Shown here one piece after another: positions 7,516 to 7,939 of a stretch of DNA of 64,000 nucleotides; positions within the stretch are counted from its first letter, which is position 1, and each line of letters begins with the position of its first letter. Below the pieces are notes generated by a model that worked only from the letters and a program-made list of their open reading frames with translations, had not been told where the DNA came from and did not search any database. Position numbers and translations under genes: made by a program. The DNA comes from a virus, in IMG/VR virus record IMGVR_UViG_3300020573_000227, positions 37,684 to 101,683 of that record; one strand, given 5' to 3'.

Positions 7516-7869
7516 ATGCCAATCTCCAAAAAACCTAAACAATCGTATTTCAAGGAATTATTCATAGAGGGAAGATATAAAGATTTTAATGATTTTTATG
7601 ACGAAAATAAATTTATTATATATAAATCCATCATTGATATTTTCTTAGAATTTAAAAAAACCAATAAAAAAACATTAACCCTAAACATATCCGCAAAAAT
7701 TAAGGGGATGGATTGGGACACGGAATTCACCTTTAATAGAAATGAAACGATTGTTTTGAAAAGAGACGTTTTACCTTACTTTGAAGATATTGAGGATTAT
7801 GAATCTTGCTCCGAAATATTAAATTTATACAAAGACTTGACATTTCAAAAAGAAAGTATTATAATTTAA
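7516..7869 (+). CDS. Hypothetical protein with C-terminal UVR-like motif
   Basis: FEDIEDYESCSEI. Confidence 0.6.
   Translation: MPISKKPKQSYFKELFIEGRYKDFNDFYDENKFIIYKSIIDIFLEFKKTNKKTLTLNISAKIKGMDWDTEFTFNRNETIVLKRDVLPYFEDIEDYESCSEILNLYKDLTFQKESIII
7837..7865 (+). promoter_or_regulatory. Perfect sigma70-consensus promoter driving sRNA C
   Basis: TTGACA(7837)-N17-TATAAT(7860) inside the 3' end of the CDS. Confidence 0.7.
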
Positions 7870-7870
7870 A

Positions 7871-7939
7871 TGTATCAGGAGAGAGGTACATTTATTTTTT
7901 GTCATATCCCCGGTGGTTTTAATCATCGGGGATTTTTTT
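7871..7939 (+). ncRNA. Candidate antisense sRNA C targeting the leader at 19513-19544
   Basis: Own promoter, hairpin with GAGAGAG loop, terminator TCCCCGGTGG/TCATCGGGGA + T-run; near-perfect complement of the leader. Confidence 0.65.

Follow-up and report, generated by a model that had tools for sequence, protein, structure and literature searches.

To our knowledge, few phage-encoded trans-acting small RNAs (sRNAs) with a defined phage target have been described, and these come mostly from temperate enterobacterial phages. In enterobacteria, MicL and DapZ are sRNAs embedded in 3' UTRs, each with its own promoter inside the upstream coding sequence; they are Hfq-dependent and use seeds of about 7-12 nt. 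In CopA/CopT and RNAI/RNAII, two hairpins with complementary loops meet and the contact then extends into a long duplex, both RNAs being encoded in cis on opposite strands of one locus. Among phage RNAs, the c4 antisense RNA of phages P1 and P7 acts on the icd-ant leader (Citron & Schuster 1990, summarised in PMC12197685); c4 and its target derive from one transcript, out of which c4 is cut, and its role is in lysogenic immunity. The lambda OOP RNA, 77 nt long with a promoter and terminator of its own, is cis-antisense to the 3' end of cII, and its duplex with the phage mRNA is cut by RNase III (PMC12197685). The chromosome of Bacteroides thetaiotaomicron encodes GibS, an RNA of 145 nt whose targets are metabolic (PMC7366714).

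We analysed a 64,000-nt stretch of DNA, called the window hereafter, from an uncultured freshwater jumbo phage. Its closest record, a 316-kb IMG/VR contig, has 96% identity at the first of the two sequence copies described below, and the DNA runs that contain the region are lake and freshwater metagenomes. The phage looks like a large virulent phage. We propose that bases 7870-7939 are the gene of a phage sRNA of about 70 nt, antisense to the first ~31 nt of the first mRNA of a gene cluster on the other strand, and from the sequence evidence we give this reading a probability of roughly 0.65. Like c4, it would be a small phage RNA that pairs with a separate site on a phage mRNA, with complementary bases in loops, and that controls the phage's own genes. 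Unlike c4, it has its own predicted promoter and terminator and is encoded on the opposite strand, 11.6 kb away from its target; the two RNAs are related neither in sequence nor by Rfam family, the Rfam C4 model not being matched. With MicL and DapZ it would share a promoter in the end of a coding region, a terminator common to sRNA and gene, and a short conserved seed acting in trans on envelope-protein mRNAs, whereas its complementarity covers ~25-30 nt, it is phage-borne, and its host probably belongs to a phylum without Hfq or ProQ (PMC7366714). The locus has what is expected of a trans-encoded, 3' UTR-embedded sRNA, as judged from its sequence: a discrete promoter and terminator, no ORF of its own, and a remote target that covaries with it. 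GibS is likewise AT-rich and trans-encoded, with an extended seed directed to a 5' or start region without a known chaperone (PMC7366714). The GibS promoter is also non-canonical, of the -10/-30 type, and the two RNAs have no sequence similarity. More generally, an extended seed used without a chaperone fits reports on Bacteroides sRNAs (PMC7366714). The likeness to CopA/CopT and RNAI/RNAII lies in the two hairpins with complementary loops and the extension into a long duplex; here, in contrast to those cis-encoded pairs, the copies are 11.6 kb apart, and the loop complementarity is not kept in all lineages. As with OOP, a short phage RNA would have its own promoter and terminator, and cutting by RNase III is plausible here too, but OOP acts in cis on a 3' end and the sRNA would act in trans on a 5' end. 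By this comparison, the sRNA would work like P1/P7 c4 or like a 3' UTR-embedded enterobacterial sRNA, and it is outside all curated families. At this locus no Rfam family reached threshold, either in the search of the whole window or in that of 7780-7990 at E up to 10; the best sub-threshold scores were 28 bits for PyrR (threshold 54) and 18.5 bits for CopA (RF00042, gathering 60). The phage GenBank collection, searched by blastn with both regions, gave no match.

The sRNA locus contains the following features:

7516-7869, + strand: 117-aa ORF, whose last codons hold the sRNA promoter; the sRNA lies within the 3' UTR of this ORF
7837-7865, + strand: promoter-like element TTGACA-N17-TATAAT, recognised by consensus match and conservation in relatives
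7870-7939, + strand: predicted sRNA of ~70 nt, from the hairpin, linker and terminator fold; coordinates approximate
7870-7876 and 7885-7891, + strand: arms of the predicted sRNA 5' hairpin (7 pairs), with a GA-rich loop at 7877-7884
7892-7905, + strand: U-rich linker of the sRNA, single-stranded in the predicted fold
7906-7933, + strand: predicted sRNA terminator, 12 pairs, G+C-rich, followed by a U-run (a T-run in the DNA)

An earlier note on this DNA had described a perfect promoter hidden in the end of a coding sequence and a short plus-strand RNA ending in a terminator. Both are found as described, the RNA as a prediction of ~70 nt: TTGACA (7837-7842) and TATAAT (7860-7865) stand 17 nt apart inside the end of the 117-aa ORF, and this is the sole 12/12 consensus match within bases 1-20000. 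The hairpin region begins four bases past TATAAT. The predicted fold of the 70-nt RNA has an MFE of -23.5 kcal/mol (z = -5.1), and its 5' hairpin includes a U-G pair that is valid on the plus strand only. In this phage TTGAC-N17-TAnnnT is not the prevailing promoter type, with 12 sites found where 15 are expected, and the host promoter type is likely to be another one, TTG-N19/20-TAnnTTTG, to judge from the sites found in the window. The product of the 117-aa ORF had no match in Pfam, PHROG or the Atlas; homologs of this ORF lie upstream of the sRNA in all relatives examined, including G013. The genes 5' of the sRNA (2049-6801, + strand) look like an RNA-repair set: their products are a double AAA ATPase resembling ClpB, a kinase-like protein of the AAA_33 type, an RNA ligase of the T4 Rnl1 type and a protein with a cREC_REC domain.

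Bases 7869-7903 recur at 19513-19544 on the same DNA strand, ~11.6 kb away, and the match reported in the earlier note holds: 31 of 32 positions are identical, and the first copy carries a 3-nt insertion (CAG). A 31-mer search allowing up to 3 mismatches is expected to give 0 matches by chance (100 shuffles). At the single substitution copy 1 has G and copy 2 has A, so that a duplex of the two RNAs would contain a G-U pair there, also as had been noted. Around the second copy the features are as follows:

19549-19556, - strand: TATTTATA box heading the minus-strand cluster; its distance to the last complementary base (19544) is 4 nt
19513-19544, - strand: target element with complementarity to sRNA bases 7869-7903; it makes up the first ~31 nt of the predicted leader
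19460-19512, - strand: remainder of the leader (85 nt in all), including a second hairpin (~19484-19493 with 19462-19471) whose end is 2-3 nt upstream of the ATG (19459)
11059-19459, - strand: first transcription unit, from a 216-aa membrane protein through an 83-aa ORF, with a terminator at 11033-11055

Copy 2 sits in a divergent gap, between ORF 18809-19459 (-) and ORF 19658-20437 (+), which encodes a PhyH-type dioxygenase. The TATTTATA box at 19549-19556 is probably a phage promoter element from which the target transcript would be made; the placement of copy 2 beside this box had been recognised before, with a distance of 5 nt where we count 4. The complementarity ends where a transcription start site 4-6 nt past the box would fall. 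On the plus strand, -10-like hexamers occur before copy 2 at no conserved position and with no -35 element. In the predicted fold of the target element, the 5' end is A-rich and single-stranded and is followed by a hairpin whose loop is CUCUCUC, so that the predicted folds agree with the claim that both RNAs form hairpins with complementary loops. The leader fold has a z of -2.8. In its second hairpin, RNAalifold found 8 pairs, 2 of them with compensatory changes, and frequent G-U pairs valid on the operon strand only. The predicted duplex of sRNA and leader in the window has ~-40 kcal/mol and 25 contiguous pairs, and the leader is by far the best non-self target there, the 0.1 percentile of all sites being -25.2.

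Two other readings of the copies were considered and dropped. A small peptide starting at the ATG at 7870 or 19514 was rejected because the reading frame is not kept in relatives, where it is broken, with a 2-nt length change in the L005 group. A Bacteroidota -7 box promoter on the plus strand (TACATTTA) was rejected as well: it is missing from other lineages and leaves the covariation unexplained.

Relatives were gathered by scanning viral contigs with the sequence pattern and the flanking proteins. Every lineage with the element has the same order at the sRNA locus: TTGAC(A/T), 17 nt (16 in G013), TAnnnT, 4-9 nt, hairpin, U-rich linker and terminator. Across an alignment of 19 distinct sequences, no change was seen in TTGAC or, within the second hexamer, in its T, A and final T, while the coding sequence around the hexamers has diverged; where the ORF stops earlier (G002, L133, L143, L146) the second hexamer is non-coding, yet it is conserved. 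The repeat itself stays invariant where its flanks have diverged to 73-83% identity. The hairpin-linker-terminator architecture was found in all relatives that were folded, although the arms of the 5' hairpin have in places been replaced by quite different ones, as in the G004/G005 and L152 lineages. Terminator stems vary by compensatory changes, and the terminator U-run is present on the plus strand only. A covariance model, R1, built from the sRNA sequences of the relatives, found one site in the 64-kb window (7837-7938, 101 bits) and one strong match per related genome. A weak second R1 match of 31.8 bits, with a promoter-like start and a terminator, was seen elsewhere in a related 251-kb record (L293, G004:164698-164804, + strand).

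For the target side, we compared 77 loci carrying relatives of the 216-aa first gene. In many of them the leader has the same layout: after the box and a gap of 3-6 nt comes an A-rich start, made of GAC or GGC plus an A run, then a hairpin with a CU-rich loop, and last a second hairpin that stops 2-3 nt short of the ATG. The first leader hairpin is kept with differing arms, and in L044 and L052 it has G-U pairs specific to the operon strand. Per-sequence folds were used for this hairpin, which RNAalifold did not call because the arms shift register between lineages. In G004, G005 and G019 the ORF begins right after the box; the start codon then falls inside the complementary region, and the element forms the first ~ten codons of a signal-peptide-like N-terminus.

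We then asked how the two loci vary together, using the 18 genomes or contigs that have both: the window, G002, G004, G005, G008, G009, G011-G017, G019, G020 and three named contigs. Complementarity is kept in all 18. Sixteen were scored together; G013 was scored separately and G012 is identical to G011. In these 16, cognate duplexes reach -26 to -43 kcal/mol, against ~-11 for shuffled sRNAs, and the cognate pairs sum to -584.7 kcal/mol, a value that not one of 50,000 permutations attains (permuted pairings, -446 +/- 19; relatedness between genomes uncorrected). In G013 the cognate duplex has -40.6 kcal/mol and 21 contiguous bases match the leader. Lineage-specific changes appear in both loci: a U/A run shorter by one residue (G017); a run interrupted by an added G/C (c1920); four additional bases, AUUU/AAAU (G016, G020); another linker, with GCC/GGC at its end (G004, G005, G013); one more U/A before the run, with the pairing extended over the start codon (G019); UGG/CCA in the loops (G008); and a G-C pair replacing the G-U pair (G014). 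In the aligned sequences these matched changes are visibly independent events, each confined to one lineage, and they offer ready-made natural compensatory mutants. Single-base differences between the copies are not all of the wobble type, since two of three give A-C or C-A mismatches (G002; the G009 group). Where the element is missing, both sides are missing: G021-G024, two of them 95-100% complete, gave no sRNA hit with R1, and their leaders are short and without the element. Because both sequences change together in 18 related genomes, sRNA and leader very probably pair. Whether related phages keep both copies and covary in them had been put forward as a check, and the shared indels and the complementarity in 18/18 answer it positively; a trans-encoded antisense RNA aimed at the 5' end is strongly supported by conserved architecture, co-occurrence, co-absence and covariation. 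The sRNA-target pair can thus be read from comparative sequence alone, in uncultured lake jumbo phages.

The kissing-loop part of the earlier proposal stood less well. The GAGAG/CUCUC loop pairing is present in the window and in most lineages and absent or partial in G016, G020 and L127-type sRNAs. The best-conserved contact is that between the sRNA linker and the A-rich mRNA 5' end, which is kept in several lineages that lack the GAGAG/CUCUC loops; the loops are not the conserved core.

From these features we propose the following course of events. The sRNA would be transcribed from its own promoter in the end of the 117-aa ORF, and the target mRNA would start just past the TATTTATA box at 19549-19556. 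Pairing would nucleate between the single-stranded stretches (linker and A-rich 5' end), between the two loops, or both, and would spread by invading both hairpins to give a duplex of ~25-30 bp at the extreme 5' end of the mRNA. The most likely outcome would be down-regulation of the first transcription unit (19459 to ~11059), which encodes exported and membrane proteins. This could come about by cleavage of the long duplex by a double-strand-specific RNase, with loss of a protected 5' end, or by loss of an A-rich landing site for ribosomes. Where the start codon lies in the paired region, a direct block of translation initiation would be the simplest reading. In the window lineage the effect is more likely to fall on the 5' end than on the start codon, because blocking the first 31 nt of the leader leaves the predicted AUG accessibility and the start region unchanged; folding by itself therefore does not account for an effect on expression. 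The target cluster may remodel the host surface, and the sRNA could then time that step of infection. More tentatively, and at odds short of even, we suggest a chaperone-independent RNA switch in large freshwater phages with probable Bacteroidota hosts, in which a ~70-nt sRNA with an unusual promoter class co-evolves with the 5' end of near-leaderless TATTTATA-box messages and times exported envelope proteins, through a main leader target and start-codon targets in the same cluster. If true, this switch would be the first phage sRNA regulon described for the host phylum.

Similar sequences at two sites of one genome can also be kept alike by processes that act on DNA. The earlier note had raised recombination sites as its alternative, in which the copies would be att-like direct repeats that bound the cassette and stay alike by recombination or gene conversion, with no regulatory pairing. 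Direct repeats do flank the 11.6-kb cluster, their identity in the window is one contiguous tract, and gene conversion between them would also produce concerted evolution. We found no support for this alternative, which we regard as very improbable. None of 80 loci with the dioxygenase gene beside copy 2 joins the 117-aa ORF to it, and neither an excised nor a scar form was seen. The cluster is present without repeats in G021-G024. The complete genome G009 has exactly two motif copies, ~14 kb apart on one strand, and in G012 the copies are also ~14 kb apart. In G013 the distance is greater, with ~7 kb between the cluster and the 117-aa ORF with its sRNA; the repeats there do not bound the cluster, and complementarity is kept. 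In many lineages the identity is a mosaic: the match extends over loop and linker, and the stems are different or contain indels, a pattern more in keeping with selection on the pairing segments than with one conversion tract. Nor would this alternative explain why promoter and terminator are conserved around copy 1. Alternatively, both copies may be DNA operators for one phage regulator, just 3' of two promoters, with the covariation reflecting co-evolution with the protein. Each copy indeed starts at or a few nt past a promoter-like element, a common operator position, its core holds an inverted repeat, and sites of one protein would likewise change together. Against this, the spacing of the inverted arms differs by 3 nt between copies of one genome, the hairpin arms have been re-invented in different registers, and the best-conserved matching part is a non-palindromic A/U run. 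The sRNA locus, moreover, has a dedicated terminator that a bare operator would not need, and the G-U pairs work only as RNA, the sRNA hairpin and the leader hairpin being read on opposite strands. We consider operators improbable.

The sRNA could also be real and have its main targets elsewhere, either at the starts of exported-protein genes or in host mRNAs, the leader then being a decoy or sponge. Within the window, one site is of interest here:

9353-9380, - strand: degenerate third copy in the start region of a 479-aa exported-protein gene, a possible secondary target

The sRNA duplex with this start region has -25.2 to -25.9 kcal/mol, at the 0.1 percentile of window sites, and the copy is retained by 6 relatives and missing from the 2 with no GAGAG in the sRNA loop. 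These points speak for such targets, but the leader duplex is far stronger (-40 against -25), and the matched lineage-specific indels are found in the leader only. A second candidate site, the start of a 550-aa gene, scored similarly in the window and was rejected since it is not conserved in relatives. Main targets elsewhere, with the leader as a sponge, are unlikely in our view, and the leader is retained as the main target of the proposed sRNA.

The target had been described as an 11.5-kb operon. It would be the first transcription unit alone, and the cluster (7938-19459, - strand) is not one operon: terminator hairpins directly followed by a TATTTATA box are found at 11020-11055 and 10229-10266 (- strand), and these pairs indicate at least three transcription units. 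Products of the cluster mostly have signal-peptide, lipobox or membrane N-termini. In the first unit, gene spacing is tight, most N-termini are of the signal-peptide, lipobox or transmembrane type, and Pfam gave weak hints alone, to Lectin_C and Cohesin. The 216-aa first gene is split in some lineages (L109/L111 in G004, L205/L208 in G019, L206/L207 in G018); the part at the head of the cluster is the C-terminal one, which has gained a signal-peptide-like N-terminus encoded by leader-homologous DNA, and the N-terminal part is a separate small ORF ~7.5-8.7 kb away. The TATTTATA box occurs 26 times in the window, against 15.3 +/- 4.1 expected, and 16 of the 26 stand 3-18 nt upstream of an ORF ATG; most such messages would therefore be nearly leaderless. 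This suggests that the boxes are a phage promoter class with nearly leaderless mRNAs, among which the 89-nt distance at 19556 is an exception. Other boxes are at 10229-10236, 11020-11027, 21387-21394 and 62588-62595, and at 4096-4212 (+ strand) a box is followed by an ORF-less stretch and then a terminator (4182-4206).

Promoter-like sites of the Bacteroidota type (TTG, 19-20 nt, TAnnTTTG) were found on the plus strand at 1994-2024, 23950-23979, 25543-25573 and ~26660, where they precede the ClpB-like gene, the GOLLD region, ORF 25578 and the tmRNA. No Shine-Dalgarno sites accompany the start codons, and the signal peptides terminate in AQ or GQ. Promoter type, missing Shine-Dalgarno sites and signal-peptide ends together hint at a host in the Bacteroidota, a phylum that rarely uses Shine-Dalgarno sites. 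Beyond the divergent region, a GOLLD RNA (301.9 bits), a tmRNA (82.8 bits) and seven tRNAs are clustered (24412-24817, 26689-27084 and 20718-22946, + strand).
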